Notes under the pieces: generated by a model | Database searches by the model: none | The model's input: only the letters and a program-made list of their open reading frames with translations | What the model was told of the DNA's origin: nothing | Program-made: the position numbers and the translations under genes | Shown here: positions 6,668 to 47,100 of the stretch, piece after piece | How positions within the stretch are numbered: the first letter of the stretch is position 1 | Layout of the letters: each line of letters begins with the position of its first letter | IMG/VR virus record: IMGVR_UViG_3300034418_007243 | Span: 32,001 to 96,000 of that record | Strand: one strand, 5' to 3' | From: a virus | DNA length: 64,000 nt

Positions 6668-6671
6668 AGTT

Positions 6672-6962
6672 ATGGCTCCTAAAAAGAAAGATTCTAGGTT
6701 AGCAAGAGCAGGTGTATCAGGTTATAATAAACCAAAGCGTACACCTAACCATCCAACTAAGTCACATGTAGTTGTAGCTAAAGTAGGAAATAAAATTAAA
6801 ACTATTAGGTTTGGTCAACAAGGAGTAAAAGGAGCTGGAAAAAATCCTAAATCTAAAAAAGATAAAGCACGTAAGAAAAGTTATTATGCTAGACATAATG
6901 CTCAAGATGCTAAACCATCTAAATTATCTGCTAGATATTGGTCACACAAAGTTAAATGGTAA
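6672..6962 (+). CDS. Small very basic phage protein
   Basis: KTIRFGQQG...ARKKSYYARH...SARYWS.KVKW motif, which I recognise from aquatic phage hypothetical proteins. Confidence 0.65.
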   Translation: MAPKKKDSRLARAGVSGYNKPKRTPNHPTKSHVVVAKVGNKIKTIRFGQQGVKGAGKNPKSKKDKARKKSYYARHNAQDAKPSKLSARYWSHKVKW

Positions 6963-6965
6963 ATC

Positions 6966-7946: not shown

Positions 7947-7957
7947 AATAAAACCTT

Positions 7958-26462: not shown

Positions 26463-29400
26463 ATGGCTAACGGAGATCCTACACAAGACATGTCAATAAC
26501 ACCACCTGGCTTAAGTGAAGGTCCTGTGGATTTAAGTGCTGGTGTACCCATGAATACACTACCACAAAATTTAGAAGCCCCTAGAGTTGAAGATTATTAC
26601 CCTGATAGATTTAAACAAGATCCTATTGCATCATTGCCTCCAACTCCAGAAAAGGTAAATGCTTTAATTGATAATTTTGTTTATAATACAGAAGCTAAAG
26701 AAAATCCTTTAAAAGCTACTAGTGTTTTAGGAAACTTTCATACTTCTGATTATGGACAAAATCAATTTATGGATAGATACTATAACCATAATAAATTTAG
26801 TGAGTTAGGTTTTAGTCCTTTTTTAGATAATGAAACTAGATATAATGAAGCTTCTTCTGGTTGGGATGAATTTGAAAGAGCTTTTGGGCAATGGACAAAT
26901 TTATCAGGAGTAGCTTTTTCTGATGCTATGTCTTTTGGTGATTCTTTAACTGACAGAAAAAATGCAGAGCAGTTTAAAAGAGTAATGGATATAGGAAGTA
27001 GTACAGATACTGGAAAGTTTGCTACTAATTTATTTTTAAACTCTGGTTATACAATGGGTATAATGGCAGAGCTTATTGCTGAAGAAGTTGTGTTAGGTGC
27101 AACAACTGCAGCTTTAGGTATTTCTTCCCCTATTACAGGTGGTGCAACTGCAGGTGCTGCTGCTGTAACAGCTGCTACTATGGCAGAAAGAGCAAGAAGA
27201 GGTTTTGGTAAAATTACACATGCTTGGGATGCTATGAAAAACGTAGGTAAAACTTTATCAAGTTTTAAAGATGTTAATAAAGCAAGAGAATATTTTACTT
27301 CAGCAGGAAAAGCTACAGGAAGATTCCTTAATCCACTAGAAAATACAGCAAGATTTCTAAAACAAAAAAAATCAATAGCTGGTATTCATGAAGGAACAAA
27401 GCTTGCTAAACTAAAAACAGCTACTAGCGGTTTTGCAGAATTTTATAAAGATGTAAGAAATGTTAGATTAGCCTTTGGTGAAGGAGCTTTAGAAGGAGGT
27501 ATGGTTGAAAATGAAATGATTGATCATTTAACTAAAGACTGGTTAGATAAACATCCTGGTCAAAAGATGAGTGATTCTGCTGCTCAAGCTATAAGAAATG
27601 CTGCTAGAGATGCTGGTGTAACAACTACTCTTACTAACACACCTGTTATACTTCTAAGTAACAAAATTGTACTAGACGGTATTTTAAGACCTGGCCAATT
27701 TAGCAAAAAAATTATAGGTGAGGTAATAGAAACAGGAGGAAAGAAACTGTTATTTAATCCACGAAAAGGTGTAAAAGATGTTTATTCTATTTTACCTAAA
27801 GGGTTTATAAATAAAACATGGGCTTACGCAAAAGATCCTAGATTAGCTTTAAGCGCTGCAGCTACAGGAGTTATAAAATATTCTTCTGCTAACTTTGCTG
27901 AAGGTCTTCAAGAAACAGCTCAAGAAATTATATCTGGTACTAATGAAGATTACTATACTGCTCAATATAAAGGTGATGTAACTAAAGGTGGATATTATTC
28001 TTTTGTTGCACAAAATGTTAATAAACAATTCTCTCCTGAAGGATTTGAGATATTTGCTTCAGGATTTTTAATGGGTGGTATAGCAGGTCCTATATCTAAT
28101 ATTGCTGGTAGAACTATGTCTACAGCTACAGAGTTATTTGATCCTAATAGTGATTTAAGAATTAGAGGTTTTAAAATTGGAGAAAAAGAAGATGGTACAG
28201 GTAAGTATATTACAGGTGGATTTTTAGGTAAAGCTTTAGGTATTGGTACTGGTACACAAGAACAAATATCTGCTGCTGAAAAATTAGATAGAAAAAGAAA
28301 AGATGCTTTAGATGATGTAGTAAATACTTTAAATGAGTTTTATGACATTAATAAAAAACAATATCTAAATCCAGAGTTAGAAAATTTATTATCTCAAAAA
28401 CAACTTAATTCTTTGATGCAAAAAGCACAAGAAGAAGGAGATGTTAAAGCATATAATGATTTTAAGGACACATCAGGATTTAAGCATGTAATAACTGCTT
28501 TAAAATATGGTAGATTAGGTACACACATACAGCAGTTAAAAGAACTAAAGAATTTAACAGAAGAAGAAATAAAACAGCAATACGGAATATCAAAAACTAA
28601 ATTTGATGCAAGTATAGATAATGCTGTAGAAAGAGCTGAAAGAATACAATATAGATATGATAAAGCTAAAGAGCTATTTCCTAATCCTTATAACCCACAA
28701 AATTATAGAGGTAACGAAGCATTTCTTATGCTTATAGGAGAAAAAGCTTGGAATGATGCTGTAGAAGAATTTATCTTTAATCAAGATAGTTTTGATAATG
28801 CTGTTAAAAGAACAGAAAAAATACTAAGTAAAGCTAAAGATAAAGCTAAACTTAAAAATACATCCTTTTCAAAATTTGAAGCTTTGTTTTCTTTAAGTAA
28901 AACACAAGCAGAAATTAATACTCTAAAACAAGAAATAGAAGCTTTAGAAGAAAGCGGTGTAAAAAAGACAGATCCTAAATTAAGATCACTTAAAAAACAA
29001 AAAGAATATTTAGAAAGGTTTGCTGATGCAATGGAGCAAACAAAAATAGAAAGAGCAGAAAGTAAAACAGAATCTATTACTCCAAAAACTAAAAAGAAAG
29101 CTGAAAGAGCTTTTAAACTTTACGTGAATTTGTTAGCTGTAGAAAGTGGTGACTTTGTTGCTAATGAAGATTTAACAGATGTATTTGAAGACTTATTAGA
29201 TTATGCAGCCTTAAGTGAAAGAAAACAAAAAGCAATGGATGCTGCTAATCTTTTAACAAACCCTCAAGCATTTTTTGAAAGAGTTGAAAGAAATAAAGAA
29301 ATTAATTCTAAAATTTTTGCTAATAAAAAAGCTGAAATAAAAGAATCTCTTGAGCAGTATTTGAAAGCAATGGATAAAAATGAAATGCTTCAAGAGCTGC

Positions 29401-31553
29401 ATAAATTAGGAATGTTCTTTTCTTTAGAAGAGCTAGAAAATTTAGAACAACAAATGAAAGATGGTGTTCTTACTTTAGAAAGCTTTCCTAAAACATTTTA
29501 TTATACAAATGTAGATACTGTAGAAGATGAAAAGCTTTCAAGTCTTCAAGTACAAAGAAATACAGAGGACTATCAAAAAGCTATTGCGCTAGTTAAAAAA
29601 TATTTTCCTCACATAACTGGAATTCCTATAGAGCAAGAAACTATAGTTGATCCTTACTCAGCTTCAGTAAGATTAAAGCTTAAAGATGATAATAGAACTT
29701 TTGAAGATTTAGCAAAACAATTTGGTTTTGAAAATAAAGAAAAGGTTCCTTTAAAAGATGTTTTACAAGCTATTATAGATAGCAAATATGCAACAGCTCA
29801 AGAAAAACTTTTAGCTTCTCAATTATTAACATTAGCTAGTGATACAGAAACAATTACTTTTGCTACTAATATGGCTATGCCGGGTGAATATTCTGAAAGT
29901 TTACAAACTAGAATAGATCCTAGATATTCAGCAAGTAATTATGCTAAATCAAAGAAAAAATTAAGAACAGAAGATTTTGGTGTTTTTGAATATGAAGGAG
30001 CAGATTTACCTATAGAAGTTACCATTCTAAGATATGAATTAGAAAGAAGAGTTTTTGAATCTTTAAATACTAATACACAGTTTTCTGAAAATATTAATGA
30101 GTTAATGAAACTTGCTGACGCTAGGTTTACAGAAATGGCTAACGCTGATGTAAATAGTGTAAATTTTGCAATATTTCCTTTCTTACAAGATAAAGCTGCT
30201 TTTATACAAGGAGCAATGACTAGCAGAGATTTTCAAAAATTTTTAGCATCTATTCCTTATAAAAGCACAAAAGAACAAAAAAATAGTTGGCAAAAGTTTG
30301 TTGACTTTGTTATAGATTCAATTAAACAAACGCTAGGTGGAAAGCCCAATGGTTCTGCTCTTAATGAAGCTCTTACTCTTATTACATCTGAGATAGGTAT
30401 TATAGAAGAAGAAAAAGCTGCTCCTGTTACAGGAGAAACAAAAGCAGAAGAAGCAGTTATTATAGAAGGTCCTATTTCTATTACAAATAATCCAAAGAGC
30501 ATGTGGTCTGAGCATAAAGAATTTATGACTCAGATGGTTAATTTATTTAAACAACAGAGTAAAGAACAAGAAGCTAAAGGAGAAACACCGCTTGGTAGAT
30601 TTACAGATAAAAATGGAAATAATTTATCAGATTATGCAATCTTAACAACTACTCAATTTAAAACCTGGTGGAATAAAAACTTTAATGCTGCTAAAGATGA
30701 GGCTATAAATAACTATAATACTCAATTAAAAGAAGCAGTAGAATTAGAAGAACTTGAAAGTAAACAACAAGAAGAACCTACTCCTAAATCAGAGCAAAGA
30801 AAAAGTAGAAAGGATGATATTAAGACTAGGGAGATGGTAAACAAACTATTAGGATTACGGTTTACAAGACCTCAGATTGCAGCCATGAGTGTTGATGATG
30901 CTATTAAATTTATAGAAGATAACATTCCTTACCCTGAACTAGTAAAAAGAAGAGAAGAAAAAGAAAGATTAGAAGAATTAAAAGCTAAACAGAAAAAACA
31001 AGAAGCTGTACAAAACATTATTGATAAATTTAATAGTGTTACAAGCTTAGATGAATTAACATCAGTGTATGATACAATTTTAAATGCTATTGAAGAAAAT
31101 GATAAAAACATTGTTGAAGCACAAAAAGATGTAAATATAGAACAATTACGTTTAGAAACTCTAAAAAGATTGGCTGAAGAAGTAAGCTTTGATCAATTAA
31201 AAATTGGTAAAGCAATGCGTCTTAAAAAGAATAAAAATGCTTATATTATAGAGGTAAGTGAAGATGGTAAAACATATACTGCTCAATATGATGATGGCAC
31301 TTCCAATACTGTAGAAATTACAGAAGACAATATAAAAGATTTAGTTCAAGCATTTTATAGTGAAGCTTATGAACAGACAAATGAAGTTGAATCAGAAATT
31401 ACTGAAGATGAAGAAAAAGTTTTATCTGAATCTAAAGAAATATTTGATAATTCATCTGAAGGTATAAAAGAAGCTATGGATTCTGCTAAGAAGCTTGGCA
31501 AAGAACAAGCTAGAAAAAACTTTTTAGACGCAATAAATAATAGATGTAAATAA
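26463..31553 (+). CDS. Large ejection (pilot-like) protein with degenerate zincin-like domain
   Basis: 1696 aa; Ala/Gly-rich hydrophobic helices, EGALEGG and EGLQETAQE..GFLMGG motifs, long coiled coils; ends in RCK. Confidence 0.6.
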   Translation: MANGDPTQDMSITPPGLSEGPVDLSAGVPMNTLPQNLEAPRVEDYYPDRFKQDPIASLPPTPEKVNALIDNFVYNTEAKENPLKATSVLGNFHTSDYGQNQFMDRYYNHNKFSELGFSPFLDNETRYNEASSGWDEFERAFGQWTNLSGVAFSDAMSFGDSLTDRKNAEQFKRVMDIGSSTDTGKFATNLFLNSGYTMGIMAELIAEEVVLGATTAALGISSPITGGATAGAAAVTAATMAERARRGFGKITHAWDAMKNVGKTLSSFKDVNKAREYFTSAGKATGRFLNPLENTARFLKQKKSIAGIHEGTKLAKLKTATSGFAEFYKDVRNVRLAFGEGALEGGMVENEMIDHLTKDWLDKHPGQKMSDSAAQAIRNAARDAGVTTTLTNTPVILLSNKIVLDGILRPGQFSKKIIGEVIETGGKKLLFNPRKGVKDVYSILPKGFINKTWAYAKDPRLALSAAATGVIKYSSANFAEGLQETAQEIISGTNEDYYTAQYKGDVTKGGYYSFVAQNVNKQFSPEGFEIFASGFLMGGIAGPISNIAGRTMSTATELFDPNSDLRIRGFKIGEKEDGTGKYITGGFLGKALGIGTGTQEQISAAEKLDRKRKDALDDVVNTLNEFYDINKKQYLNPELENLLSQKQLNSLMQKAQEEGDVKAYNDFKDTSGFKHVITALKYGRLGTHIQQLKELKNLTEEEIKQQYGISKTKFDASIDNAVERAERIQYRYDKAKELFPNPYNPQNYRGNEAFLMLIGEKAWNDAVEEFIFNQDSFDNAVKRTEKILSKAKDKAKLKNTSFSKFEALFSLSKTQAEINTLKQEIEALEESGVKKTDPKLRSLKKQKEYLERFADAMEQTKIERAESKTESITPKTKKKAERAFKLYVNLLAVESGDFVANEDLTDVFEDLLDYAALSERKQKAMDAANLLTNPQAFFERVERNKEINSKIFANKKAEIKESLEQYLKAMDKNEMLQELHKLGMFFSLEELENLEQQMKDGVLTLESFPKTFYYTNVDTVEDEKLSSLQVQRNTEDYQKAIALVKKYFPHITGIPIEQETIVDPYSASVRLKLKDDNRTFEDLAKQFGFENKEKVPLKDVLQAIIDSKYATAQEKLLASQLLTLASDTETITFATNMAMPGEYSESLQTRIDPRYSASNYAKSKKKLRTEDFGVFEYEGADLPIEVTILRYELERRVFESLNTNTQFSENINELMKLADARFTEMANADVNSVNFAIFPFLQDKAAFIQGAMTSRDFQKFLASIPYKSTKEQKNSWQKFVDFVIDSIKQTLGGKPNGSALNEALTLITSEIGIIEEEKAAPVTGETKAEEAVIIEGPISITNNPKSMWSEHKEFMTQMVNLFKQQSKEQEAKGETPLGRFTDKNGNNLSDYAILTTTQFKTWWNKNFNAAKDEAINNYNTQLKEAVELEELESKQQEEPTPKSEQRKSRKDDIKTREMVNKLLGLRFTRPQIAAMSVDDAIKFIEDNIPYPELVKRREEKERLEELKAKQKKQEAVQNIIDKFNSVTSLDELTSVYDTILNAIEENDKNIVEAQKDVNIEQLRLETLKRLAEEVSFDQLKIGKAMRLKKNKNAYIIEVSEDGKTYTAQYDDGTSNTVEITEDNIKDLVQAFYSEAYEQTNEVESEITEDEEKVLSESKEIFDNSSEGIKEAMDSAKKLGKEQARKNFLDAINNRCK

Positions 31554-34500
31554 TGAGATGTCCACTTAATCCAGATATAGATTTACAAGCATTTAGAGTA
31601 GCTGTATTTGCAGATATGTATGATATGGCAGAAAGCCCTGAAGCTTTTGATGTTGATCAATACATGCAAGAAATGTATGAATTAGTTTTTGAAAACACTA
31701 AAGATCCTGCATTAGCTCTAGATTATGCGCGTTTTATACCTGAAACTACTCTTAGTCTTTTAAATACAGATAAAAAACTTAGTGGCAAATTAATGAATGA
31801 GAAAGGTTTAAACCTAAATTCTCTAATGCAAAAAGTTATTGATATAAGTAACTATAATAAAGATCAATTAAAAGTTCTTAATAATCAGTTAGCTGGTAAA
31901 GTATCTTTAAAAGATACAGCAAAAAAAGGAAAAGAAGTTGCAAAGCGTAAAAACCAAGAAAAGAAAAATGAAAATCAGTTATCACTATTTGATCCTGAAA
32001 TAATAGAAGAAGCAGCTAAAGAAGAACCTTTACCTACATTAACACCTTCTTTGTCACCAACACTTGTTGAGGAAGCAAAAGGTATATTAGATGCACAAGG
32101 TTCTGATGAAATGATTTATCCTCTTACAGCTTTTGCAACAAGAAATGTTGATAGACCAACAAAACATTCAAAGTTTATATCTGCTGTTCAAAAACAATTG
32201 CTAAGATTATTTAAAGAAAATAAAACAAATAATATTTTTTTAGCAGCTGTACCTACTAGTGAAATTATAGCAAATCTTGAAAATAAAGATAGTGTTTACT
32301 ATAATTTTTTCAGAAGTATGGATGCTGCAGAACAACAAAGTTTTATAGAAAATGATAATGGTTTAGGTGTTATATTAGTTGTAACAGATCAAGCAGGTCT
32401 ACCTATAACATTTAATGATCAAGGATTGCAGTCTAAAGAAGACTTATCTTCCCCAGCTTTTCTATTTTTAAATAGTCCAAAGTTTGATACTAAAGGACAA
32501 ATTAAACTTAGTGAAAATGATATTGCAGCAATTGAAGAAATAAAACAAGTTTACAAAAAACATAATCAACCAGAGCTTGCAAAAAAAGCTGAACAGTTTT
32601 ATATAGAACAGCTTAAGTCTATTAATAAAATTAGAGAATATGTTAGAGCTAACCCTAAAGAATCTGTTAAGTTTACAATTAACGGAGGATTTTTAGGAGC
32701 TTATCAAAAGTCTTCTATAAAAAATAAACAACCTCTTGCTGGTTTAGAAGAGACTATAAATTTACAAAGAGGAAAGTATAATAGCATGTATTTTACTTCA
32801 TCAGATTTGGGAGGTAAAACTATAGTGCTTGAAAGACCTACTTTGTCTGAGGCTGATATGTTAGAAGATATACTTAGTCTTTTAGTGGATGATATAACTT
32901 TAAATGGTAAACCTATATCTTCTACTGAGCGTAAGAATTTATTCTTCCAATTTTATTATAGCAAAAAAGAAACAGTTCAGCTTGCATCAGAAAATGGAAA
33001 AGCTGTTTTGTATTTTAAATATAAAGCTATTCAACTTGATCAATTAAATGATCAACAAAAACAAACTTTAAAAGAAGAACTTAGAAATTATTTTACAGAA
33101 ATAAATGATAAAGGTTATCCTGAACAACATACTTATTTAAAAAGTTCTCCGCAAAGTGCAAATAAACAAATTAGTGATATCAGTATTGAAAACGGAGTTC
33201 TTACATTAACTAATAAACCCTATGAACAGTTTGTTAAAGAAAAGTTTTATAGCCTATATAAAGTAGAAAATGGAAGATTTGCTACATCAAATCCATATAT
33301 CACATTTGAATTAGCACCTGAAAGTGAAGGTCAAGTTTTTTTAGAAAATAAAAAAACACAAGAAGAATTAATAAATGAATTATTAACTGTTGCAGAAGAA
33401 ATTGAAGAAATTCAAAATAGAATAGATGAACGTCTTTCTATAAAAAAAGATACTCAAAAATCAAGCATTAAAGAACAAGGAAAGTTGTTTAGAATTTTTG
33501 AAAAAGCTTTTTATGAAGGAAATAATAAAAGACATAATGATATATCTAATGAACAACTTCAACAACTATCTCCAGAAACAAAAGCTTATTTAATAGACTT
33601 ATATGAAAGAGCAAAACCTTTTAATGAAGAATATCAAAGAATAGGTAAAGTAAGAGATGTTCAAACCAACAAAGAAATAATAACAGATGAAGATAAAATA
33701 AGATATATAACAGCAAATCATTTTGGTGGTTTTGGTAGAGCTGCTAGGTTAGGTTCTGCTGCTGATTATGTGTTTAGGCAAGACCCTAAGTATAAAGATT
33801 TAATCTTTGCTATTCCATCTCAAGATGTTTTAAATAATATAAATAAGGTTTTCAATGCGAAGCTTACAAGTGAAGAGTTAAATATTGGCAGTGTAAAAGA
33901 AGAACAAGTAAAAGAAGAACCTAAAAAACCAACTCCTTCTTATTCATCAAGATTAGCAGATTTTGACACAAAGTTAGATAAAACACTTAAAGTAAAAGGT
34001 TTAGATGTAAAAGCAACAAAACAACAAATAAAAGAAGCTAAAAAGTGGTATGAAAAAAGTGCTATAAGTCAATTTTTTAAGTTTGAAGAAATTTTTGATA
34101 TGGTTAATACTGATGATGGTTCAGCTGTAGCAAGATGGACATTAGCAGGTATTACACTTTACAAAGGTTCTGATTACTCTGATTTATATCATGAGGCTTG
34201 GCATGCTTTTACACAGACATTCATGAATTCTTTACAAAGACAAGAATTATATGAAAAATTAAAAACTAAATCAGGAACTTTTACAGACCATCTTGGTCAA
34301 ACAGTAACGTTTAAAGATGCTAGTGATTTACAATTAGAAGAACATCTTGCAGAACAGTTTAGAGAGTATATGCTGAATCCTTCTAGTAAGAAAATTACTA
34401 AAGAAGAAAAGTCTTTATTTAGAAGAGTTTTACAAGCTCTTAGAAAATTATTTGGTGATAGAGAACTTGATTTAGAAATTACAAACTTAGAAGCTGATTT

Positions 34501-37500
34501 ATTTGTTCAGGATATCTTTGAAAAGCTCCGTATTGGTAAATTATATGAATATACTTTTGATATAGAAAATTTTGCTTTTCCCTCTTTGGATAAAGGAGGA
34601 GTTAAAGCATTGCAAGGAAGTACTGGAGTTCAACAATTAAACTATAACAATACTATGAAAATGGTTGGTGTTATAGATTCTCTTATTTCAGAATGGATAG
34701 ATTTAAAAAATGCTGCTTTAAATAGAGATCAAATAGATGCTTTATTTGATATTAATGATGAAATAGATAAAGCTGGTGAAAATATTAAACGTATTGAAGA
34801 GTTAGAAAAACAAAAAGAAGAACTTCTAACACTAGCTAGACAACAAATAAAAGCTACATATAAATATACTTCTGCAGTAACTAAAGATCCAAATGCGCTT
34901 TTAGCTGCTTATAATCATGCAGCTTATAGAATAGCAAGAATTATAAGTAATAAACAAGCTCTTTATGCAGCAACAGAAAACATTGTAGAAAAAGAAAAAT
35001 TAAAAAAACAATTAGATCTTCTAGAATGGTCACTAAAAAACTTTGGTAATTTAGAAAACATTAAACATGTAACTAACAGGCCTGGTGAAAATAGTAGAGG
35101 TCTTATTTCTATGCATATAGAAAGATCTGCTACGTTTTTTAATCAAGATGTTAAAGTTTCTCTTGATTTTGAAAATGTAACTGAAGAACAACTTTTACAA
35201 GGAAAGTTATTTGAAAAAACAGGCAATGACTTATCTATGGTAGAAATTGCTAAGCCTGAAGTTATATTCTTTCTAAAGCAATTATATTCTTATAACAAAG
35301 AAGGTTTAGTTGAAAGAGATGATTTTGGTTTACCTAAACAAGCTGATTTTGGTCAAACCTGGAATAAACTTGCAAGGCTTTTAGTAAATACGCCTAACAT
35401 TGATCAGATGTATCTAAAGCTACAAGCAGCATCTGTAAAAGATCCTCAGATAAAACAATTACTAAGTAAACTAGGAAGAACTAACACTGACTCTAATTTA
35501 ACTCAAAGTTTAATAAGTAATTTCTTTAATACTTTTGGCATGGCTAATGTGCCTCTAATACAAACTACTATTAGAAAAGTTACTAAACAAAATCCAGATG
35601 GAACAACATCAACACAGACTATAGCTAGTACAGGTAGAGCTTTTAATTCAAACAATAAAATAGCTAAAGATTGGGAAAGACAATTTAAAGAACCCAGTCA
35701 TAAAAGCAAATATATAAAGAGAGATGAAAAAGGTAGTTACTTAGATGTTGATGCCTTCTTAAATGATTACAATTATGCAAAAGCTAAAGGTAACCTTTGG
35801 CAGTTTTATAATGATTTAGGTATTCTATTATCTGATAATGAAGATTTAAAAACAGAACTGCAAGATCCTAACAATAAAAAACTTTACTCAGATAAAGTAA
35901 GTTTTATTTTTACAACTCTAAAGAAAAACTATCAAGAAAAAAATAAAAGATTAGCTGATTTAAATGAATTAGCTAAATCTGAAAGTGTTATCTATAATAA
36001 TCTTATAAATTTAGAATCTAAGTATTCTAATGTGTTTACAGATTTTATGGTTACCAATGCTGAAGGTAATGCTCAGTTTGAACACACACTTAATAATACT
36101 ATTACTATGATGGTTAATGGTATTAATAATGTAGAAAATTATTTGGATATATTAGCTATACCACATTTAGCTCATCTAAATGTTGATTTAAATCCTTTTG
36201 CTGAATCTTCTATGTGGTTAAAAAGCATGTTTAATTTAGAAGGTACAGCAGATACAAATCCTAAGTATGGTGAAAGAAGAAAAGATACTTATGGTAATGA
36301 TATAAAATTAGAAGTTGTAAACTTAAGTGGTATTATAACTCTTGAAGGAGAAGAAAAAACTCAAGAAGGTATAGCTAGTGCTAGAGCAGATGAATTTACT
36401 AAGTTTATTCTTGATATGCATTTAGGTTATGATAATAGCTTTGAATTAATGCGTCATGCTGATAAATCAACTTCTTATGGTATTAGATTAACTGGTGAAA
36501 CTTTAGGAAGCAAAAGTAGAAGAGATTCTTATTTATCTCCTCAAACATTTAAAAAAGATAATGTTCAAGTAGCTTTTGATATTAAAAATAGAATTGTTCC
36601 TTATTTAATAGCGGAACTTAAAAGAATGAGAATAGCTAGAACAGCTCTCAAAGATAATATAAAAGATTTTGATTTTGCTTATTTAGAAAGAGGTAAAGAC
36701 TTTGTAATATTTTCAGGTTATCTAAGTGCAGATACTCAAGCTTTGTTAGAAAAAGAAATTGTAAAAAATGAATCTCTAGCTTTAGAAGATTTTGCAGAAG
36801 CTATTAGTAATGATATATTTGAAAAGGAAATATTAAAAGATACTAGATCTTATTTTAATAAACAGTATGTTAAAGTAGATAAACTTTTTAAAGCAACAGA
36901 TGAATTTATCTCAGATAATATTGTTAAAAACTTTATTGGTAAAAGTAATATAACTAAAGACGAAGCTAAAAAAGCTATATTACAATCACAAATAGTCAAT
37001 TCTTTTATAAATAATTTAGAGAGCATGTCTTTTATATACGGAGACATTGCTCAGTATAAATTAGACAAAGAAGACTTTCACAAACGTAATGCTGGTGCTG
37101 GTTCAACAGGTAAATTATTCCGTACAGATAAAGGTATGCAAGATTTTATTAACGGAAGAATAAATCAAACTTATGCTGCTAAATTAAAAAATGAACTAGG
37201 TCTTGCAAGTTTAAGAACTTATGATGGCACATTTAATACAGCTGTTATATCAGATAATAAAATACCTAGTGTTTATGCAGAACTAAGACAATTAGGAGAA
37301 GCATATAATGAAATGGAAGAAGCTGATGGTCAAGGTATTATTGCTTTTGATTCATATAGAACTTTAAAAATAGCAGAAGGTTCTTGGCTTCCAGAACAAG
37401 AAGCTTTATATCAAGATATTATAAATGAAAGAGAAATAGACGAAACTAAAATTCAATACTATTTTCCTGCATATAAAACACAATACTGGGGACCTTTAAA

Positions 37501-40500
37501 AACAGATTTAGAAAGAATTGGATTACCTGTAACAGCTTTTCATAAATTTTCTTTATATCCAGCAATACCTAATGTTATTAAAGGTAAAAACATGGAGATT
37601 CTTCATAAAAGAATGATTCAAGAAGGTATTGATTATGTAGTATTTAAATCAGGTTCTAAGGTAGGTACTGTAACAGAAACTCAAAGCGGTACAAAACAAG
37701 TTTATAAAAAAGATTCAAGAGAGCTTGTCTTTGATAACAATTATGATCCTAGTAAAGATAAACCTTTCTTTACTAAAAATGTGATCTTTTTAGAGTACTT
37801 AAAAAATCAATTAGAAATAAATGATAAAGCTAAAGGTCAAACAATTTTCTCTACTCAGTTAAGAAAATTAGTTATAGATGGTCTTATGGAGTTTGGTGTA
37901 CCTGTTGATTATAAAACAAATATAAAAGATCCAGAAAAAAGAATTAAAGCTTGGGAAAATGAAAAGAATAAAGAAGATAGCTCTCCTTATTATAAATTAA
38001 TTAGAAATTATGAGCAAACTATTGAAGCTTTAACAAAGCTTGAAAAAGATAAACTTCTTAAAGAATTAAATTGGACAGAAAATGAAGATGGTACTTTATC
38101 TGGTGATAAAAAGAAACTAATAGACTTTGTTGTTAGAGAATTATCTAGAAAAGAATTAGGAGAACATGAGTTAGAATATTTACTTAAGGGAGGAGATCTT
38201 TCTTTATCTCTTAATGCTGCTGACGTAGAAAAAATGCTAAATGCTATAGTTGTTAAAAAACTAGTAAAGCAAAAAGTAAATGGAGAAGCTTTAATTCAGG
38301 TTGCTAATACCTTTATGGAAGATGCAGTAAAAGCTAAAGGTTTAAAGTTTAAAAATCCTACTAAAAAACAAATTGAAGAGTTTGGGTCTAATGATCTACC
38401 TTTTTATACTAAAAATAAAGATGGGTCTACAAATGCTATGAAAGTTAAGGTAGCATTACAGAATGACTTTAAAAACTTACTCTTTTTAAAACATAATGAT
38501 GGGCAAGAAATAGGTAGTATAGAGAGACTTAATGAAATGATTAAAGATGAAGAGTGGTTAAATAAAGGTGATCATAGAAAGATGATTACTATGACTGCTG
38601 TTCGTATTCCTGTTCAGGGTCTTAACTCTATGGAGTTTATGGAAGTTTATGAGTTTTTACCTGCTTCTGCAAGCGGTACTATTATACTTCCCTCAGAGAT
38701 TGTAGCTAAGTCTGGTGCTGACTTTGATATAGATAAGTTAACAGTTATGATGCCTAATATTAAGGCTAAAGTAACAAAAGAAAATAAAGATAAAATCTTT
38801 TGGAAAGAGTTAGCTCAAGAGTTTCCTGATTTAGATTTTAGTTATAATAATGTGCAAATGATATTTGACGCATTAAAATCTCCAGAAACATACAAATTTT
38901 TAAATGAAGAAGATATAGCTGTAGCAAATGCTATTAAATCAAAAGCAAATGTAGTAACAGCTGAATATTCTACAGGTGATAATAAATCAGGTCTTGAAAA
39001 TAAATTATTAGAAAGCATTGTATCTATACTTTCTTTACCTGTTAACCGTGAAGCTTTACTTACACCAAATAGCACAGCTCTATTTACAGAAGGTAAAAAT
39101 GAAGGAGATAAATCATTGGTTGATGCTTTAGCAAAAGATGAAGAGTATAATGGAACTACTACTTTTGAAATTGCATATAATTTAAAGAAACACCAGGAAA
39201 ATAGTATTGGTAAAGCAGCTCTTGGTTTGGGTGCTGTAGATAATACCTATAATACTTTAATGAATAGAGTTGGTGCTTATCTTAATAAAGAAGTAGGTTC
39301 TACAGAAGAAGAATTTATTCAATCAATATTTGGTAAAATTCCTGAAAGTGAACAAAAATATTACCAGGCTGTAAGAAAAAACTTTAGAAGACAAAAAATA
39401 TTTTTGCCTCATAATACAATTGATGGCAATATATCTTTATCACATTCTACTAGTAAAGGAAGTAATCAATCTATCTCAGGTGTAATTAATCAAATGATTA
39501 ATGGATGGGTAGATGTTGCTAGAGGAGCTTGGATTTTTAATGTACAAGGAAATAAAGAAGTAGCACCTACACTTTTATTTATGATTCAAGCAGGTGTTCC
39601 AGTTGATACAGCTGTATATTTTGTGTCTAATCCATTAGTAAAAGAATATGTAAATCAGATTAGAAAAGCTCAAAGTCCTTTTGCTGAGTATATGAATATG
39701 GATCTTGAGAACCCTAATGCTTTTAAAGCAGCAGCTTTAAGAAATATTTTTACTAATCCTGAGTTTGGTTTTAGATTGCCTTATAAGATGAACGGGGTTT
39801 TTCAAAAGGAAACTGATATGTCTAATATTAACCCTATGCTAAATCAGATGAATATTAGTCGTTTAGCTAGAGTGTTAGCTGTTCAAAATGTCAACAAACA
39901 ATTCAATACTGAAACATTAAAAGAAAGAGCTGAAAATTATAAAGAAGGTGATCCTATTACTGAAGCTGACAGAGATGCTTTCTTACACTTTTTGGAGTTA
40001 GAAGAAATGGGTAAAGGGGTAAGAGATATCAAAATGAATATGAATTTTGATACAAACCCTGATCAATCTTTATATGCAGCAGAAGCAAGAATAAAAAGAA
40101 AAGGTTCTCTTGAATATGATAACAGATTTCCTTCATTTATAATTGAAAAATTAGAAAATGAATCTCCTATATCAGCATTTTATACGCAACCTTTTCAAAT
40201 AAAATTAATAGGAGGTTTATTTCCTTTAAGAAATCATAAACGCATTAATAAGTTTATAGATGATGTAGAGCTAGATGAAATAAAAAGAAATGGATGGAAT
40301 GATAGAGAATCTTTTGCTAAAGATTTTAAAAATGAATTTATTAATTTTATTTATCAAAATGAGCTAAGAAATTTTGATGTAAGAAAACTATCTAAACCAA
40401 CAACTAATACTTTTAATGGCTTTGAAATAGAAAGAGTAAATGTAGCTTCTTTAAAACATGGAGCAGCTTTTAAAGATGGTAAACTTTTTATAAGCATGAC

Positions 40501-43500
40501 TGATTTAGCAAGACAGTATGCAAGCATAACAAAAAAGTATAACGATCTTCCTATAAGTGAAACCTTAGCTGCAAAATTACAGAAAGATTATCAACAAACA
40601 GGATTAGCTCCTATATCTCCATTACAGTTTAGAAACTTTGAAGAATATGTAGAGTTTGTTATAGAAAGAGAAAGATTACGTTCTGTATTATCAACTGAAA
40701 AAATAAATAATAATTTACAATATCAATTTTTATTAGAAGAGATAAAAGATTATTATGAAAATAATACTTATGGAAAAGCTAAAATAGCTAATTATTCTCC
40801 AGAAGTTAAAGAAAGATTTATTGTAAACTATGCTAAAGAAACTTTTCTAAAAAATAAAGCTTTGCAAAACATATATAACAATGACTATATGTTTAAAAAT
40901 ACAGGGCAAAATTTATTTCAAAAATCATATGCTGATAGATTTTTAGATTTAAACAACTTACGTTTTCCACAATTAAAAAATGAATTTCTTCTACTAAATT
41001 ATCTTGAGTATGTAGAGTCACCTACAGGATATAGAAATTTAAAACTTAGCAATCCTAAATTAACAGCAGATCAGAAAAATGTTTTCTTTGAAAATTTAGA
41101 AGATTTAACTGATGAAAAAACTCTTAAAGAAAAGTTTCCTTCATTAGAAGACAATGAAATAAAATATATCATAGACTTTTTTAATGAGTTTAGTCTTTAT
41201 GCTTATTTACAAACCGGGTTAAATACAAAATCTTCTTTCAATTTATCTAGTATAGTAGATCCTGAAGAATTTACTATTATAGCTGAAGAAGCTAAAGCTA
41301 AAGCTCTTAATATATTGAATTCAGAATCTATTTATTCTGAAGAGCTTTTACAAGATTTTTACAGAGTCTTTAATAGAACTAATGGTAATAAAGGTAGAGC
41401 TGTAAAAGGTAGAGGTGTTAACTATAAAATTCAAGGTACAATCTTTACAGAAAAAGGATTAGAATATTTAAAAATAACTCCAAAAACAAAATCTTTTGTT
41501 GAAGATGTAGAATTAATTGAAACTCAACCTATAGTACAAAGTACACGTAAAACATACTCAGGAAAAGTAACTAGCTTACAACCTAATCAAATATTTGTAT
41601 TTGGTTCTAACCCGCTTGGTATTAATGGAAACCCTGCTAAAGGTACAGGTGGAGGAGCACTAGTAGCATATCAAATTGCTGGAGTGAAGCAAGGAGAAAA
41701 AATGGATAATAAACTTTCTGATTCTGGAAAGGCTTGGGGAATAACAACGGTTACAGCTCCTGGTAAGAAAAAAAGTAAAACTCCACAGCAAATTATAGAA
41801 GGTATTAAAAAACTATATGAATATGCTAACAATAATCCTAGAATAGAAGTATTAGTAGCTGATTATTCTGGACCAAGAAATCTTAATGGTTATACAGGTC
41901 AAGAAATGGCAGATATGTTTTCTAATGCAGGACCTATACCGTCTAATATAGTATTTAATGAGAATTTTGATAAGTTAATTGCTACTCAACCTACAGTACA
42001 AAGTGTTACTACTCCTAAAAATAGATTTACAGTAAAACCAAAACAGGCTGCTGACAAGAAGGCTAAAGTTAAAGCCAAAATTGCTACTCAGTATATAGGT
42101 TTTGCTGAAGGTATTTTTGGAAGCAGTACAGCTTTATATGCAGAGCAGATTGGTCAGTATGCTAATACTGGTAACTATAGTTCTGATGATGTAATATTTG
42201 TATCAATACCTGGTAAAAGAGGTAGTGCAGAATTGCAAAAACAAAATCAAGATAGAACCATAAAAGAAGCTATTAAAGCTGTAGAAGCAGGAGCTACTAT
42301 TATTACAGATAATAAAGCTTATATTGATTCTAGCTCTTACAATACAGGAGAAAAAAGATTGTTTGCTAATATGCAAGAAAAAGGATATACTTATTCTGAA
42401 GTAACGGTAGATGGTCAAATTTTAGGTACTTGGTCTAAACCTACTCAACCACAAGACAGCAATCCTAATATAGTTAAGAATAGTAATGGATTGATTGTTA
42501 TTAAAGACCAGTTAAATAATGAAGAAGGTGCAGCTATGGTAGAAAGTTTTAAACCTGTTATAGAAGAAACATCTTTTAAACAAACTGGAGGCTCTGTTTC
42601 ATGGGGTTTTGGTTTACAATGGATGAGGGTAAATAGTATGTCTACTGAACAACGTAAAGGTTTAATAATAGGTAAACAACTTAACGGTAAAGAGATTACT
42701 CAAGAAATGAAAGATAAATTCATTAACGGTGCTGATGCTCAACAATTAGGTATGCCTTTATACGGATATACAAGTATAGATAAGAATGGTAATCCTCTTC
42801 CTAATATACCTACTGAAATTATAACAATGTTGGCTCAAAAAGGTATAGATATATCTGAGTATGATGCTAGTTATAATTCTGTTTATGATAAAAAAGATGG
42901 TGGTAGTCTTATTATTCATCAGGATAATACTGAGCTAAATGAATCACCTATAATAACTATCTCTTTAGGTAGACCTATGAAGTTTATAACTTATGAGTTA
43001 AATGATCCTAATGATTTTAACATAACTGATCCTAAAAATACAGCTTATAATATAGTAAAAAATGTAATAAGCGGGCAAGCTTTAAAAAATAAAATTATAG
43101 ATAAACCTTTTAAATATGGAGAATTAACACCAGGAAATATAATGGATTATGCTAAACAGCTAGATAAAATTGAAGGTGGTGATAAATATTCACAACAAGT
43201 TTTAGATGCTCTTAAAGCTCAGTTTAAAGGAAAGGCTACTACTACAGAATATACTTTGGAGAATGGAGCTATATTAGTTTTTTCAGGTAATAATAGAAAT
43301 GTGTTGCATGAAATAGTATTTGATGAAGCTAGTGATAAAAAACCAATGCCAGAAGGTTTTCCTGAATTAACAGTAACTAAAAATAGATATGATAAGAAAA
43401 CAGATTCTTTTCTTCCTGTACAAGTAAAAACAGATAACTATAGAGTTGTTCTTACTTTAAGAAAAGTACAAGGAACTACAGTAAATAATATAGATACAGC

Positions 43501-44149
43501 TATGTTAGAAAATACTGTAAAAACACCAGCTGAAAGCAAAGCAACTGAAGGTAAATATCAACCTGCAAAAGATGTATTTGATATTGATAGCGCTCTTGTA
43601 ATAGAAGGAATAGAGCAAAATCCTGATGTTATTTTTGTTTATGAAGGAGCAGAAACAGAAGGTCTTGGAACTGGTCAAGGTGAAGGTGCAAAACATAAAA
43701 AAATAAAAAATGTTAGCACAAACAATGTATTACCTCTTACAGTGAATAGAAATTATGCTCTTCAAAATACTTTTAAAGATGTTAAAGATGAAGCTGGTAA
43801 TATGGTTATAGATCCTAAACTTAAAGAACTAATAGATAATGATATACAAACACTATTAGCTTATGGTGATAGACCTATCAGATTTAGTAGTAAAGGTTAT
43901 GGTAAAGAGTTAATTAAACAAGATAAAAAAAGAAATACTCCTATGCCTGCACCACAAGCTTTTATATATTTGTCAGAGCAATTACTAGAAAAATTTGGTT
44001 ATATTAATCCTGGCTTTTTAAGTTTAGATATGTCTGGAAATAAACCAGGTATTGAAGCAGTACAAGAAGCTCAAGAAATATCTGATGCAGAAATAAAAGA
44101 ATTGAATAGAGAAGCTGTATTAGATTTAATTAAACTGTGTAAATCATAA
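31553..44149 (+). CDS. Virion-associated DNA-dependent RNA polymerase (crAss/phi14:2 gp66-like) with zincin and accessory domains
   Basis: Catalytic GADFDIDKL (DFDID at 38720-38734) preceded by RIPVQG (38603); ADGQG and TQLRK motifs; HEAWH..EE.LAE zincin at 34190; accessory domains after 41550. Confidence 0.9.
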   Translation: MRCPLNPDIDLQAFRVAVFADMYDMAESPEAFDVDQYMQEMYELVFENTKDPALALDYARFIPETTLSLLNTDKKLSGKLMNEKGLNLNSLMQKVIDISNYNKDQLKVLNNQLAGKVSLKDTAKKGKEVAKRKNQEKKNENQLSLFDPEIIEEAAKEEPLPTLTPSLSPTLVEEAKGILDAQGSDEMIYPLTAFATRNVDRPTKHSKFISAVQKQLLRLFKENKTNNIFLAAVPTSEIIANLENKDSVYYNFFRSMDAAEQQSFIENDNGLGVILVVTDQAGLPITFNDQGLQSKEDLSSPAFLFLNSPKFDTKGQIKLSENDIAAIEEIKQVYKKHNQPELAKKAEQFYIEQLKSINKIREYVRANPKESVKFTINGGFLGAYQKSSIKNKQPLAGLEETINLQRGKYNSMYFTSSDLGGKTIVLERPTLSEADMLEDILSLLVDDITLNGKPISSTERKNLFFQFYYSKKETVQLASENGKAVLYFKYKAIQLDQLNDQQKQTLKEELRNYFTEINDKGYPEQHTYLKSSPQSANKQISDISIENGVLTLTNKPYEQFVKEKFYSLYKVENGRFATSNPYITFELAPESEGQVFLENKKTQEELINELLTVAEEIEEIQNRIDERLSIKKDTQKSSIKEQGKLFRIFEKAFYEGNNKRHNDISNEQLQQLSPETKAYLIDLYERAKPFNEEYQRIGKVRDVQTNKEIITDEDKIRYITANHFGGFGRAARLGSAADYVFRQDPKYKDLIFAIPSQDVLNNINKVFNAKLTSEELNIGSVKEEQVKEEPKKPTPSYSSRLADFDTKLDKTLKVKGLDVKATKQQIKEAKKWYEKSAISQFFKFEEIFDMVNTDDGSAVARWTLAGITLYKGSDYSDLYHEAWHAFTQTFMNSLQRQELYEKLKTKSGTFTDHLGQTVTFKDASDLQLEEHLAEQFREYMLNPSSKKITKEEKSLFRRVLQALRKLFGDRELDLEITNLEADLFVQDIFEKLRIGKLYEYTFDIENFAFPSLDKGGVKALQGSTGVQQLNYNNTMKMVGVIDSLISEWIDLKNAALNRDQIDALFDINDEIDKAGENIKRIEELEKQKEELLTLARQQIKATYKYTSAVTKDPNALLAAYNHAAYRIARIISNKQALYAATENIVEKEKLKKQLDLLEWSLKNFGNLENIKHVTNRPGENSRGLISMHIERSATFFNQDVKVSLDFENVTEEQLLQGKLFEKTGNDLSMVEIAKPEVIFFLKQLYSYNKEGLVERDDFGLPKQADFGQTWNKLARLLVNTPNIDQMYLKLQAASVKDPQIKQLLSKLGRTNTDSNLTQSLISNFFNTFGMANVPLIQTTIRKVTKQNPDGTTSTQTIASTGRAFNSNNKIAKDWERQFKEPSHKSKYIKRDEKGSYLDVDAFLNDYNYAKAKGNLWQFYNDLGILLSDNEDLKTELQDPNNKKLYSDKVSFIFTTLKKNYQEKNKRLADLNELAKSESVIYNNLINLESKYSNVFTDFMVTNAEGNAQFEHTLNNTITMMVNGINNVENYLDILAIPHLAHLNVDLNPFAESSMWLKSMFNLEGTADTNPKYGERRKDTYGNDIKLEVVNLSGIITLEGEEKTQEGIASARADEFTKFILDMHLGYDNSFELMRHADKSTSYGIRLTGETLGSKSRRDSYLSPQTFKKDNVQVAFDIKNRIVPYLIAELKRMRIARTALKDNIKDFDFAYLERGKDFVIFSGYLSADTQALLEKEIVKNESLALEDFAEAISNDIFEKEILKDTRSYFNKQYVKVDKLFKATDEFISDNIVKNFIGKSNITKDEAKKAILQSQIVNSFINNLESMSFIYGDIAQYKLDKEDFHKRNAGAGSTGKLFRTDKGMQDFINGRINQTYAAKLKNELGLASLRTYDGTFNTAVISDNKIPSVYAELRQLGEAYNEMEEADGQGIIAFDSYRTLKIAEGSWLPEQEALYQDIINEREIDETKIQYYFPAYKTQYWGPLKTDLERIGLPVTAFHKFSLYPAIPNVIKGKNMEILHKRMIQEGIDYVVFKSGSKVGTVTETQSGTKQVYKKDSRELVFDNNYDPSKDKPFFTKNVIFLEYLKNQLEINDKAKGQTIFSTQLRKLVIDGLMEFGVPVDYKTNIKDPEKRIKAWENEKNKEDSSPYYKLIRNYEQTIEALTKLEKDKLLKELNWTENEDGTLSGDKKKLIDFVVRELSRKELGEHELEYLLKGGDLSLSLNAADVEKMLNAIVVKKLVKQKVNGEALIQVANTFMEDAVKAKGLKFKNPTKKQIEEFGSNDLPFYTKNKDGSTNAMKVKVALQNDFKNLLFLKHNDGQEIGSIERLNEMIKDEEWLNKGDHRKMITMTAVRIPVQGLNSMEFMEVYEFLPASASGTIILPSEIVAKSGADFDIDKLTVMMPNIKAKVTKENKDKIFWKELAQEFPDLDFSYNNVQMIFDALKSPETYKFLNEEDIAVANAIKSKANVVTAEYSTGDNKSGLENKLLESIVSILSLPVNREALLTPNSTALFTEGKNEGDKSLVDALAKDEEYNGTTTFEIAYNLKKHQENSIGKAALGLGAVDNTYNTLMNRVGAYLNKEVGSTEEEFIQSIFGKIPESEQKYYQAVRKNFRRQKIFLPHNTIDGNISLSHSTSKGSNQSISGVINQMINGWVDVARGAWIFNVQGNKEVAPTLLFMIQAGVPVDTAVYFVSNPLVKEYVNQIRKAQSPFAEYMNMDLENPNAFKAAALRNIFTNPEFGFRLPYKMNGVFQKETDMSNINPMLNQMNISRLARVLAVQNVNKQFNTETLKERAENYKEGDPITEADRDAFLHFLELEEMGKGVRDIKMNMNFDTNPDQSLYAAEARIKRKGSLEYDNRFPSFIIEKLENESPISAFYTQPFQIKLIGGLFPLRNHKRINKFIDDVELDEIKRNGWNDRESFAKDFKNEFINFIYQNELRNFDVRKLSKPTTNTFNGFEIERVNVASLKHGAAFKDGKLFISMTDLARQYASITKKYNDLPISETLAAKLQKDYQQTGLAPISPLQFRNFEEYVEFVIERERLRSVLSTEKINNNLQYQFLLEEIKDYYENNTYGKAKIANYSPEVKERFIVNYAKETFLKNKALQNIYNNDYMFKNTGQNLFQKSYADRFLDLNNLRFPQLKNEFLLLNYLEYVESPTGYRNLKLSNPKLTADQKNVFFENLEDLTDEKTLKEKFPSLEDNEIKYIIDFFNEFSLYAYLQTGLNTKSSFNLSSIVDPEEFTIIAEEAKAKALNILNSESIYSEELLQDFYRVFNRTNGNKGRAVKGRGVNYKIQGTIFTEKGLEYLKITPKTKSFVEDVELIETQPIVQSTRKTYSGKVTSLQPNQIFVFGSNPLGINGNPAKGTGGGALVAYQIAGVKQGEKMDNKLSDSGKAWGITTVTAPGKKKSKTPQQIIEGIKKLYEYANNNPRIEVLVADYSGPRNLNGYTGQEMADMFSNAGPIPSNIVFNENFDKLIATQPTVQSVTTPKNRFTVKPKQAADKKAKVKAKIATQYIGFAEGIFGSSTALYAEQIGQYANTGNYSSDDVIFVSIPGKRGSAELQKQNQDRTIKEAIKAVEAGATIITDNKAYIDSSSYNTGEKRLFANMQEKGYTYSEVTVDGQILGTWSKPTQPQDSNPNIVKNSNGLIVIKDQLNNEEGAAMVESFKPVIEETSFKQTGGSVSWGFGLQWMRVNSMSTEQRKGLIIGKQLNGKEITQEMKDKFINGADAQQLGMPLYGYTSIDKNGNPLPNIPTEIITMLAQKGIDISEYDASYNSVYDKKDGGSLIIHQDNTELNESPIITISLGRPMKFITYELNDPNDFNITDPKNTAYNIVKNVISGQALKNKIIDKPFKYGELTPGNIMDYAKQLDKIEGGDKYSQQVLDALKAQFKGKATTTEYTLENGAILVFSGNNRNVLHEIVFDEASDKKPMPEGFPELTVTKNRYDKKTDSFLPVQVKTDNYRVVLTLRKVQGTTVNNIDTAMLENTVKTPAESKATEGKYQPAKDVFDIDSALVIEGIEQNPDVIFVYEGAETEGLGTGQGEGAKHKKIKNVSTNNVLPLTVNRNYALQNTFKDVKDEAGNMVIDPKLKELIDNDIQTLLAYGDRPIRFSSKGYGKELIKQDKKRNTPMPAPQAFIYLSEQLLEKFGYINPGFLSLDMSGNKPGIEAVQEAQEISDAEIKELNREAVLDLIKLCKS
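41522..42004 (+). repeat. 21-bp direct repeats (41522-41542, 41984-42004) inside the vRNAP gene
   Basis: ACTCAACCTATAGTACAAAGT vs ACTCAACCTACAGTACAAAGT (1 mismatch); partial third copy ACTCAACC at 42443. Confidence 0.8.
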
Positions 44150-44155
44150 AATGTT

Positions 44156-47100
44156 ATGCCTACTTGTCCTAATATAAATAGTCCTGAATGGAAAGCTTTA
44201 GTAAATAATCCTAACATAGGTACATTTCAAGCTTATAAAGATTTTTTTGAAAGTGGCACAATTAGAAGTGAGCAAGAAATACTGGACAAACTTGAACAAA
44301 GAGAAATGACTCCTATTAACCGTGGTATTAGTGAGCCTAATACACAAGAGTTATATGAAGAGTATGGAATGAAGTTTGAATTAAGTTTAAATATTGATTC
44401 TATAAAACAAGATAGAGCTACTGAATTTGCTGATAGATTAAGTAATGCTTTAGGTATAGATTATGAAATGATCACTGCTTCAGAAGCTCAAGAGATTACT
44501 AAAGATGCTCAAAACCCTTGGTCTGGACAATCTGCATTTTTCTTTGGTGATAAGGTTTATTTTATCAATAATAGAATGACTACAGATCTTGTGTTTCATG
44601 AGTTTGCACACCCTTTAGTAAGAAGTTTAGCTAAACAAAACAGAAAACTTTTTGAAAACTTATTTAACCAGGTACAACAGAGTAAAGAAGGACAAGATAT
44701 AATTAATAGTGTTTTAGAAAAATATACTGAACTAGATCCAAATTCTGATTTATTTAAAGAAGAAGTAATTGTACAAGCCCTTGAAAAAAGTTATAAAGAT
44801 AAATCTGCAAACATTAAAAGTAGTAGCCCTTTTACAAAAGCTATTAAAAACTTGCTTTATGCAATTAAGCAAGCTATACGTCAAGTTTTTGGTAAAAGCC
44901 TCCCCGTTTCTAAACTTTCTGCTGAGACTACTCTTAATGAGCTTGCTAATATGTTAGAGCAAGGTGAAAAGTTTTCATTAGAAAAACAATTGATTACTAA
45001 TGAAGATATTGTTGCTTATAATAAAGAAATGATAAATACTCTAACTAAAGAGTTGCAGTCAGTTGAAAAACAAGATATACAAGCAAGCATTAACTCGTTT
45101 TATGACAAGTTAAATATTCAAATTGAAATGCTCAAAAAGAATAAAAATCTTGATGAGTTAGCTAGAATAATTTTATATACTACAGGTAATGAGAATATCT
45201 TTGATATGAAGAGAGATCTTCAAGCTTATCAAAGTAAAGTTGTTAGAGAAACTGAAAAACTTCAAGATGAAATAGCTGAGTATAGAACTAGAGTCAAAGC
45301 TTTAGCTAATAGTATGTATACATTAGAAGTGGTTTTATCTAAAATGAAAAACCATATTAAAGATCTTGAAAAAAATGCTGAGACTAGAGAAGCAATGCAT
45401 AAAGCTCATTACTATGATAAAATTATTAATTATTGGGATGGGTTTATACAAGAAATAGAAAAAACATTATCTGATGCTAATGTTCCTAATGATGCTAAGA
45501 TAGTGTCATTAGTAAATTCTATTAGAAGAAGTATCCGTACATCTAAAGATGGTATTAATAAAATGATGGAAGAAGGTGCTATAGATGGTCTATGGCAACA
45601 ATTAGCACCTATGAATAAAGATATTGGAGAAAGGTATGAAAGAATAATAGCAGAGCTAAAAAGAAAAAAGGCACCCCGAGAAAAAATAAATAGAATCTTT
45701 AAAGAGTATCACGGTATGACTGAAGAGCAGTATAACCGTTTTAAAGAATTATCTAATAAGAAAGCAAAAGACGGACTTTCAGTTAAAGAAGATCAAGAGT
45801 TAGCAACACTACAAGGTTTATCTAAATCTGGTTTATCTATAAGTAAAGAAAAGATTAGAGGATTAATAAAAGGAGAAATAGGGGACGCAAATTATTTTAA
45901 TAGTTACTTGGAAGGTTATTTGTATAATACAGACCCGATTATTGGAGGTTTGGCGTTGTACACAAAGAATGCGTTGAATGAAGTGATGATAGTAACACAA
46001 TCAAAGATGAACACATTTGCTGAAGAGCTTAGACCTTTGTTAGAAGCTGCAGGATATAATCCAACTAATAAAGGTAAGCTTGGTGAAGATGTTGGTTTCT
46101 TAGATACTGTTGCAAGATTTAATCCTGAGACAGGTGTTATGGAAGAGAAAAAGGTTTGGACATTCTTGAATCCTTTTAAGAATTATAGATATGATGAAGA
46201 CCGTTTAGAGCGTAATCTTGCTGATGCTTATGATAATTGGATTATAAATAATACTGATGCAGCTAAGAAAGAATATCTTGATGCTAAAGCAGAACTAAGA
46301 GAGTTTAAGACTACATATATGAATCAGGAATATACTTCTGATTTTTATGCTAGAAAAGAAAGATTGCAGAAGACAGCTGTAGGAAGAGAGGTTCTTGCTT
46401 ATTTAGAAGATTTTTTCCAAAGATTGCGTGAAGTTACAGAACCTAATAATACTGAGATAGATAAATTAGATTCTTATGATATAGTACAAGCATTATGGAG
46501 AGAGTATAGACAAGCTCATTCTATGTATGATTTAAATGGTAAATTAAAATCAAATAAACCTGATCCTGTTACTGGTATATCTCCATTAGCTTTAGCTAAA
46601 GAAATGCGTCAATACAGAGAAGAAGGTAGAGATTTTTATGAATGGAAAGTAAGAACTAATGCTTTTGAAACTGCTTATAGAGATTATCAACAAGAACTTC
46701 TTGCTGAAGGTGTTGGTGAAAATCATCCTGATTATAAAGCAAGAATGGATTTGTGGAAACAACGTAATACTAGAGTTGTTATCAAGCAGGAATGGTATGA
46801 AGAGAAACGTAGAATATTAGCTGAAATAAAACAAATATTAGATAAGTTAAATTTGCCTGAGAATGAAAGAGCTAAAATAGATCAAGGTATTGTTTGGGAA
46901 AAAATTCTTGAGCTTACAGGTCTTTACAGAGATCAAGATGGTCAAATACAAGGACAGGAATTATCTGAAGGTAGTATACAAGAAGTAAAAGCTTTACAAG
47001 AGGAACTTGAAAGAATTAAAAACACTTCTGTAGGAAATAATGGTTTAACAAAAATAGAAAATGAAAGACTTAGTGATTTATTCAATATAAGAAAAGAAAG

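Follow-up and report, generated by a model that had tools for sequence, protein, structure and literature searches.

Facing terminal cysteines suggest that three giant crassvirus cargo proteins are joined end to end

We analysed a 64,000-nucleotide stretch of viral DNA (hereafter the window; positions 32,001 to 96,000 of IMG/VR record IMGVR_UViG_3300034418_007243), in which three successive plus-strand genes encode giant proteins, here termed A, B and C. These are most likely cargo proteins packed and injected by a crAss-like phage, with B the virion RNA polymerase (vRNAP). Their only cysteine (Cys) residues are located at the termini that face one another across the two gene junctions, and comparison with related phages strongly supports the notion that these residues act in pairs across each protein junction. 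It is probable that the facing Cys pairs form disulfides, joining A, B and C into one thread. The proteins and their Cys codons are as follows.

26463 to 31553, plus strand: protein A, the first member of the proposed chain, 1696 amino acids, sole Cys at residue 1695.
31545 to 31547, plus strand: TGT codon of A Cys1695, the penultimate residue (protein ends NNRCK).
31553 to 44149, plus strand: protein B, crAss-type vRNAP with accessory domains, 4198 amino acids, only Cys at residues 3 and 4196.
31559 to 31561, plus strand: TGT codon of B Cys3 (protein starts MRCPL).
44138 to 44140, plus strand: TGT codon of B Cys4196, the third residue from the end (protein ends LCKS).
44156 to 50056, plus strand: protein C, the last member of the proposed chain, 1966 amino acids, sole Cys at residue 4.
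44165 to 44167, plus strand: TGT codon of C Cys4 (protein starts MPTCP).

A script count of Cys over the translations reproduced exactly the positions and numbers that an initial annotation had read by eye. A search by script for overlooked residues found no internal Cys in A, B or C, and none at the N-terminus of A or the C-terminus of C. The three proteins thus contain 4 Cys in 7860 residues (0.05%), far below the level of the phage proteome: approximately 105 would be expected at the rate of the window's minus-strand (replication-side) proteins, which contain 1.33% Cys. Were 4 Cys placed at random, the chance that all would lie no more than 4 residues from the four facing termini is ~2e-11.

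The same arrangement is found well beyond the window. Homologue searches covering 5.8 billion proteins returned 120 relatives of A, 119 of B and 105 of C at 25-98% identity, and the terminal Cys, whose conservation the annotation had proposed to check, are kept across these ~340 proteins. Counts for each family are given below, an N-terminal Cys in family C being one within the first 10 residues.

Family A: 120 proteins, 223,115 residues; N-terminal Cys in 0, C-terminal Cys in 118; internal Cys, 0.
Family B: 119 proteins, 447,660 residues; N-terminal Cys in 109, C-terminal Cys in 118; internal Cys, 17.
Family C: 105 proteins, 221,398 residues; N-terminal Cys in 102, C-terminal Cys in 0; internal Cys, 27.

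Internal Cys hence amounts to 0.000-0.012% across the three families, and in the few homologues without an N-terminal Cys the start, judged at the protein level, looks truncated or miscalled. The terminal Cys is invariant in the alignments of A (A1, C1695), B (A2, C3 and C4196) and C (A3, C4), as well as in that of the B C-terminal domain (A5), where it is the sole invariant column (C227). A search of residues 1-700 of C against 1.84 billion representatives yielded, among independent representatives at 50% identity, 113 full-length C homologues, of which 110 have a Cys at one of the first ten positions; no fused B-C form was present among the best 150 matches. Across the families the Cys lies 0-3 residues from C-termini and 2-4 from N-termini. 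In many C homologues (P0035, P0033, P0073 and others) an insertion of 700-1400 residues follows the first ~80, which leaves the Cys tip at the very beginning of the chain.

The proteins could be assigned by comparison with characterised crassviruses. B matches the vRNAP of Cellulophaga phage phi14:2 (BLASTP, E = 3e-24 over ~915 residues), with the B segment SGADFDIDKLTVMMPN aligned with the catalytic DFDID of phi14:2. A hidden Markov model (HMM) of the B family detects phi14:2 gp077 (E = 4e-46) and crAss001 gp50 (E = 4e-32), and tblastn with B returned crassvirus polymerases only. By homology B is a crAss-type vRNAP, in agreement with its earlier label. C is an orthologue of crAss001 gp49 (HMM, E = 1.6e-17) and phi14:2 gp076 (E = 2e-8), and the N-terminal part of A is weakly related to crAss001 gp47. 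The corresponding sets, gp078-gp077-gp076 of phi14:2 (g067-g066-g065 in Drobysheva et al.) and gp47/gp50/gp49 of crAss001, are homologous cargo and contain the same junction-only Cys, although their first gene break lies ~1000 residues further along than that of the window, and the window's B is twice as long as their polymerase, with extra domains. Presence in the virion has been shown for these orthologues: gp47, gp49 and gp50 of crAss001 were found by mass spectrometry (PMC10172136), and the phi14:2 polymerase and its two neighbours are likewise virion components (bioRxiv 10.1101/2020.03.07.982082).

To see how the Cys are distributed over gene junctions in DNA, we took consecutive large plus-strand open reading frames (ORFs) in IMG/VR loci retrieved by searches with the alignments of the three families. 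This gave 177 distinct junctions, with Cys on both sides in 108, on one side in 0 and on neither in 69 (Fisher p = 6e-51, which overstates independence because the junctions are related by descent; the absence of one-sided cases still stands). All 69 Cys-less junctions are those between the preceding cargo protein and A, i.e. the outer end of the proposed chain. Regarding the proposal of the annotation that terminal Cys join the proteins in gene order, the pairing of facing Cys across junctions is strongly supported. Its shared motif, CK at both C-termini and CP at both N-termini, does not generalise: it is a local detail of the window, only the Cys itself being invariant across families, with CPN conserved in family C.

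Crassviruses do not all break this set of proteins at the same places, and the Cys pair follows the break. Four gene arrangements were compared, that of the window being A, B and C as separate proteins. In IMGVR_UViG_3300042898_001439 (locus L211), B is itself split near residue 600-690, giving A, B1, B2 and C. The new junction reads NSCK at the end of B1 and MRLCS at the start of B2, and both pieces have terminal Cys only, while the window's B has no Cys at that position. At this locus (1501-10631) the pieces are of 602 and 2440 amino acids, with a TAATG overlap, and the putative chain has four proteins. In crAss001 and phi14:2 the first break (gp47/gp50 and gp078/gp077, respectively) falls at approximately B 950-1080 and is Cys-tipped; the mapped equivalents are B 1124 for gp50 residue 187, B 1175 for gp077 residue 178 and B 878-948 for gp47 residues 2155-2210.

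In the uncultured phage cr108_1 (MT774385.1), a single ORF covers the equivalents of gp47 and gp50, and there is no Cys at the fusion point. The same genome has a group I intron (locus L244, 21052-21370; Rfam RF00028, 80 bits, E = 1e-20) inside the vRNAP DFDID, between AKAGSD and YDIDK. This break, healed at the RNA level, is without Cys tips, and the next junction at the protein level is again Cys-tipped (NLCK facing MANVCPN). The four arrangements together indicate that a Cys pair accompanies a true break in the polypeptide and is absent elsewhere. In the cr108_1 record, each of the two vRNAP exons is listed as a hypothetical protein of its own. Contig 3300030060_003615 (L050, L005) seemed to have C split, but this was discarded as a mere cut between two loci.

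A structural precedent for such a bond comes from the pre-ejectosome of the cyanopodophage A4: in cryo-electron microscopy of the virion, gp27 inserts its C-terminal helix into a cleft of gp26, and a disulfide between Cys1715 and Cys5 holds it there (PNAS 2025, PMC12002296). In the Anabaena phage A-4L genome, the sole Cys of gp27 (1717 amino acids) is at position -3 and the sole Cys of gp26 (1114 amino acids) at position 5. As with A, B and C, these are adjacent large ejection proteins with their sole Cys at facing termini, and the B tail is likewise predicted to be a helix ending at its Cys. A4 differs in that it is a small T7-like podophage from a different family and has a single such pair, without an RNA polymerase, and the report concerns one bond in one phage rather than a conserved rule or a chain. 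BLASTP between A, B or C and gp26 or gp27 gave only E > 0.2, and the family HMMs had no match to them at E <= 0.01. Given this lack of detectable similarity, A4 is an analogue that works in a like manner, not a family member.

Suppression of Cys is itself a conserved trait of the ejection proteins of N4-like phages (N4 gp50; DEV gp71, gp72 and gp73), at 0.00075-0.0055%, the lowest value being that of gp71 homologues (PMC11445570). These phages resemble the window in having a giant injected vRNAP and partners nearly free of Cys. In contrast, the N4-like vRNAP is one polypeptide for which no terminal Cys pairs are reported, whereas in A, B and C the purge spares only the ends at which proteins meet.

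We propose a mechanism in which A, B and C have been purged of Cys, as other ejected phage proteins are, except at the termini that meet the next protein. A Cys1695 would bond with B Cys3 and B Cys4196 with C Cys4, the disulfides most likely forming in the assembled particle, and the lack of other Cys would prevent wrong cross-links. Three separately translated proteins would in this way become one linear thread of ~7860 residues. Since the bonds would lie at the extreme chain ends, each joint would be nearly unbranched and presumably thin enough to pass the tail channel. The tether would keep A, B and C in order and at 1:1:1 stoichiometry, and once inside the cell the proteins would be set free by cytoplasmic thiols.

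The positions of additional features of the proteins, and of the upstream structural genes, are listed here.

4379 to 12919, plus strand: crassvirus tail ring proteins 2 and 1 and muzzle protein (Pfam CrAss_Ring_2, CrAss_Ring_1, crAss_MUZ).
34190 to 34204, plus strand: HEAWH, B residues 880-884, gluzincin-like; H880, E881, H884, E929, E930 and E934 invariant (alignment A2).
38720 to 38734, plus strand: DFDID, B residues 2390-2394, catalytic metal-binding motif of crAss-type RNA polymerase, invariant in alignment A2.
42755 to 43462, plus strand: AlkB-like 2-oxoglutarate-Fe(II) oxygenase domain, B residues 3735-3970 (PF13532, 34.2 bits against a cut-off of 31.2).
43460 to 44146, plus strand: conserved alpha/beta domain at the C-terminus of B, and after it a final helix (B 4178-4196) ending at Cys4196, as modelled by AlphaFold2 (AF2).
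44597 to 44611, plus strand: HEFAH, C residues 148-152, of the zincin-like motif HEFAHP, with E202 and E203 downstream; the gluzincin-like motif is invariant.

The ring and muzzle genes lie upstream on the same strand, so that the genes of A, B and C come last in a crAss-type block of structural and cargo genes. For B 3970-4198, the AF2 model has a predicted local distance difference test score (pLDDT) of 81.4, and its predicted helix (model residues 209-227, pLDDT 72-76) ends at the Cys. Invariant columns in the alignment of C are C4, P5, N6, W12, L15, H148, E149 and H152. Searches for relatives of known structure gave little: phmmer of A, B and C against PDB sequences returned nothing useful, Foldseek with AF2 models of C 1-450 and the B C-terminal domain had no match at E <= 0.001, and PHROGs and Pfam contained almost no matches for A and C. 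A VIA-wide search with the C model listed mostly helical hairpins and did not list A4 gp26. Complex prediction for C 1-450 with B 3973-4198, run with alignments, scored 0.05 against a mark of 0.32, a result that has no bearing on whether the two bind.

B also has a phrog_2072 domain (residues 3335-3478), which together with the AlkB-like domain separates the polymerase body from the conserved C-terminal domain. Relatives have RecD-like helicase, PF08719, PF25176 or PF18760 domains in this protein, perhaps in the same region, and this accessory region looks like a variable slot for injected enzymes. In crAss001, the B-type HExxH motif is located near the C-terminus of gp47.

Four other explanations of the terminal Cys were considered. 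The first is a bridge in which a metal ion (Zn, Cu or Fe) joins the facing Cys, perhaps with the help of His, Asp or Glu residues nearby. Such a bridge could form in the reducing cytoplasm, and fits the pairing, the tracking of breaks and assembly in a reducing cell equally well. In 23% of B C-termini the residue before the Cys is His, and A tails are acidic (mean net charge -2.9). Nevertheless, each side offers one Cys and no other conserved ligand, the near-total purge of Cys fits redox chemistry better, and the sole solved case with the same signature, that of A4, is a disulfide; we regard a metal bridge as unlikely. Sequence likewise cannot name the bonding partner, and the Cys could form homotypic links (A-A, B-B, C-C) or ties to the portal, the capsid interior or another part of the virion. 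The all-or-none pairing makes this decidedly unlikely: one-sided Cys is absent from the 177 junctions, new breaks gain both Cys together and fusions lose both, the outer ends carry none, and the A4 bond is heterotypic, across the junction.

A role for the N-terminal Cys of B and C as a cysteine switch, capping the zinc of the HExxH domains until ejection, is suggested by the invariance of HExxH and a downstream Glu in B and C, which have an N-terminal Cys, the motif not being conserved in A, which has none. In addition, residues 80-250 of C as modelled by AF2 have a weak likeness to zincins of the lethal-factor type (VIA Z 6.8). We rejected this explanation as highly improbable because the N-terminal Cys persists in orthologues that lack HExxH (phi14:2 gp077, crAss001 gp50 and gp49), as it does in A4 gp26, likewise free of the motif. 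Moreover, the HExxH of crAss001 is in gp47, which has a C-terminal Cys only, the B Cys is 877 residues from the motif, and the C-terminal Cys of A and B would be left unexplained. Finally, the Cys codons could be a by-product of nucleotide signals at tight junctions, such as stop/start overlap or translational coupling, with no role in the protein. The intergenic gaps are indeed short (-4 to +31 nucleotides), and AGATGT occurs on both sides of the window's A/B junction. This reading is largely refuted and verges on the incredible, as crAss001 gp47 and gp50 lie on opposite strands yet have matching Cys tips, TGT and TGC are both used at varying distances from the end, and the equally tight junction upstream of A is without Cys in 69 of 69 cases. 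Selection on the terminal Cys is, from these comparisons, at the level of the protein.

Several points weigh against disulfides joining A, B and C. Phage particles are assembled in the reducing cytoplasm, and many crassviruses inhabit the anoxic gut. Sequence comparison by itself does not tell whether a disulfide or a metal ion makes the link. Part of the homology by which the crAss001 break was placed on A and B is weak: gp47 matches the zincin motif of B at a domain E of 1.7e-4, and matches A at only E = 1e-5, with high composition bias. The 177 junction counts are not phylogenetically independent, and the precedent is that of an analogue, A and C being without detectable similarity to A4 gp27 and gp26. 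An inter-protein Cys bond, terminal Cys or a tether in the cargo is not mentioned in the crAss001 and phi14:2 papers, and full-text literature searches found none described for Crassvirales. In favour of the bond, other disulfides are present in crAss001 virions (PMC10172136).

Cys content also varies among neighbouring genes. A 963-residue cargo-like protein upstream (20204-23095) has a single Cys at -9 (protein ends KCRVLRLPNK), and in the protein that follows it (23148-26459), whose N-terminus is free of Cys, Cys128 and Cys134 are the only two. The four Cys of a 1041-residue protein (17068-20193) cluster towards its N-terminus (11, 14, 45 and 55), with a CxxC spacing that suggests a small metal-binding knuckle. 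In contrast to the Cys-free cargo block, three small ORFs at 75-2444 are very Cys-rich (3.7-7.5%), two of them starting MxKxCGH, and none has a Pfam match. Just downstream of the cargo block are a glucosaminidase-type lysin and a spore-photoproduct-lyase-like radical S-adenosylmethionine protein (50141-50878 and 51504-52337, respectively, minus strand).

Crassviruses pack several very large proteins, among them the RNA polymerase with which infection starts, and eject them through a narrow tail. An end-to-end tether, if true, would explain the order, stoichiometry and release of these proteins as well as the lineage-specific sites at which they are split. We tentatively suggest, at somewhat less than even confidence, that the Cys pair is a post-translational stitch making split and fused forms of a giant cargo 'polyprotein' equivalent. 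The breaks could then drift (2, 3 or 4 pieces), yet what is loaded into the particle and ejected from it would in every case be one linear thread of almost a megadalton, which the reducing cytoplasm of the host would cut into an active RNA polymerase and its partners. Such a redox-gated delivery chain might be general to Crassvirales, and perhaps extend to other podophages. For annotation, a sole Cys at facing termini would mark chained cargo proteins and show which neighbours belong together, and facing Cys would also tell splits at the protein level from genes interrupted by introns.

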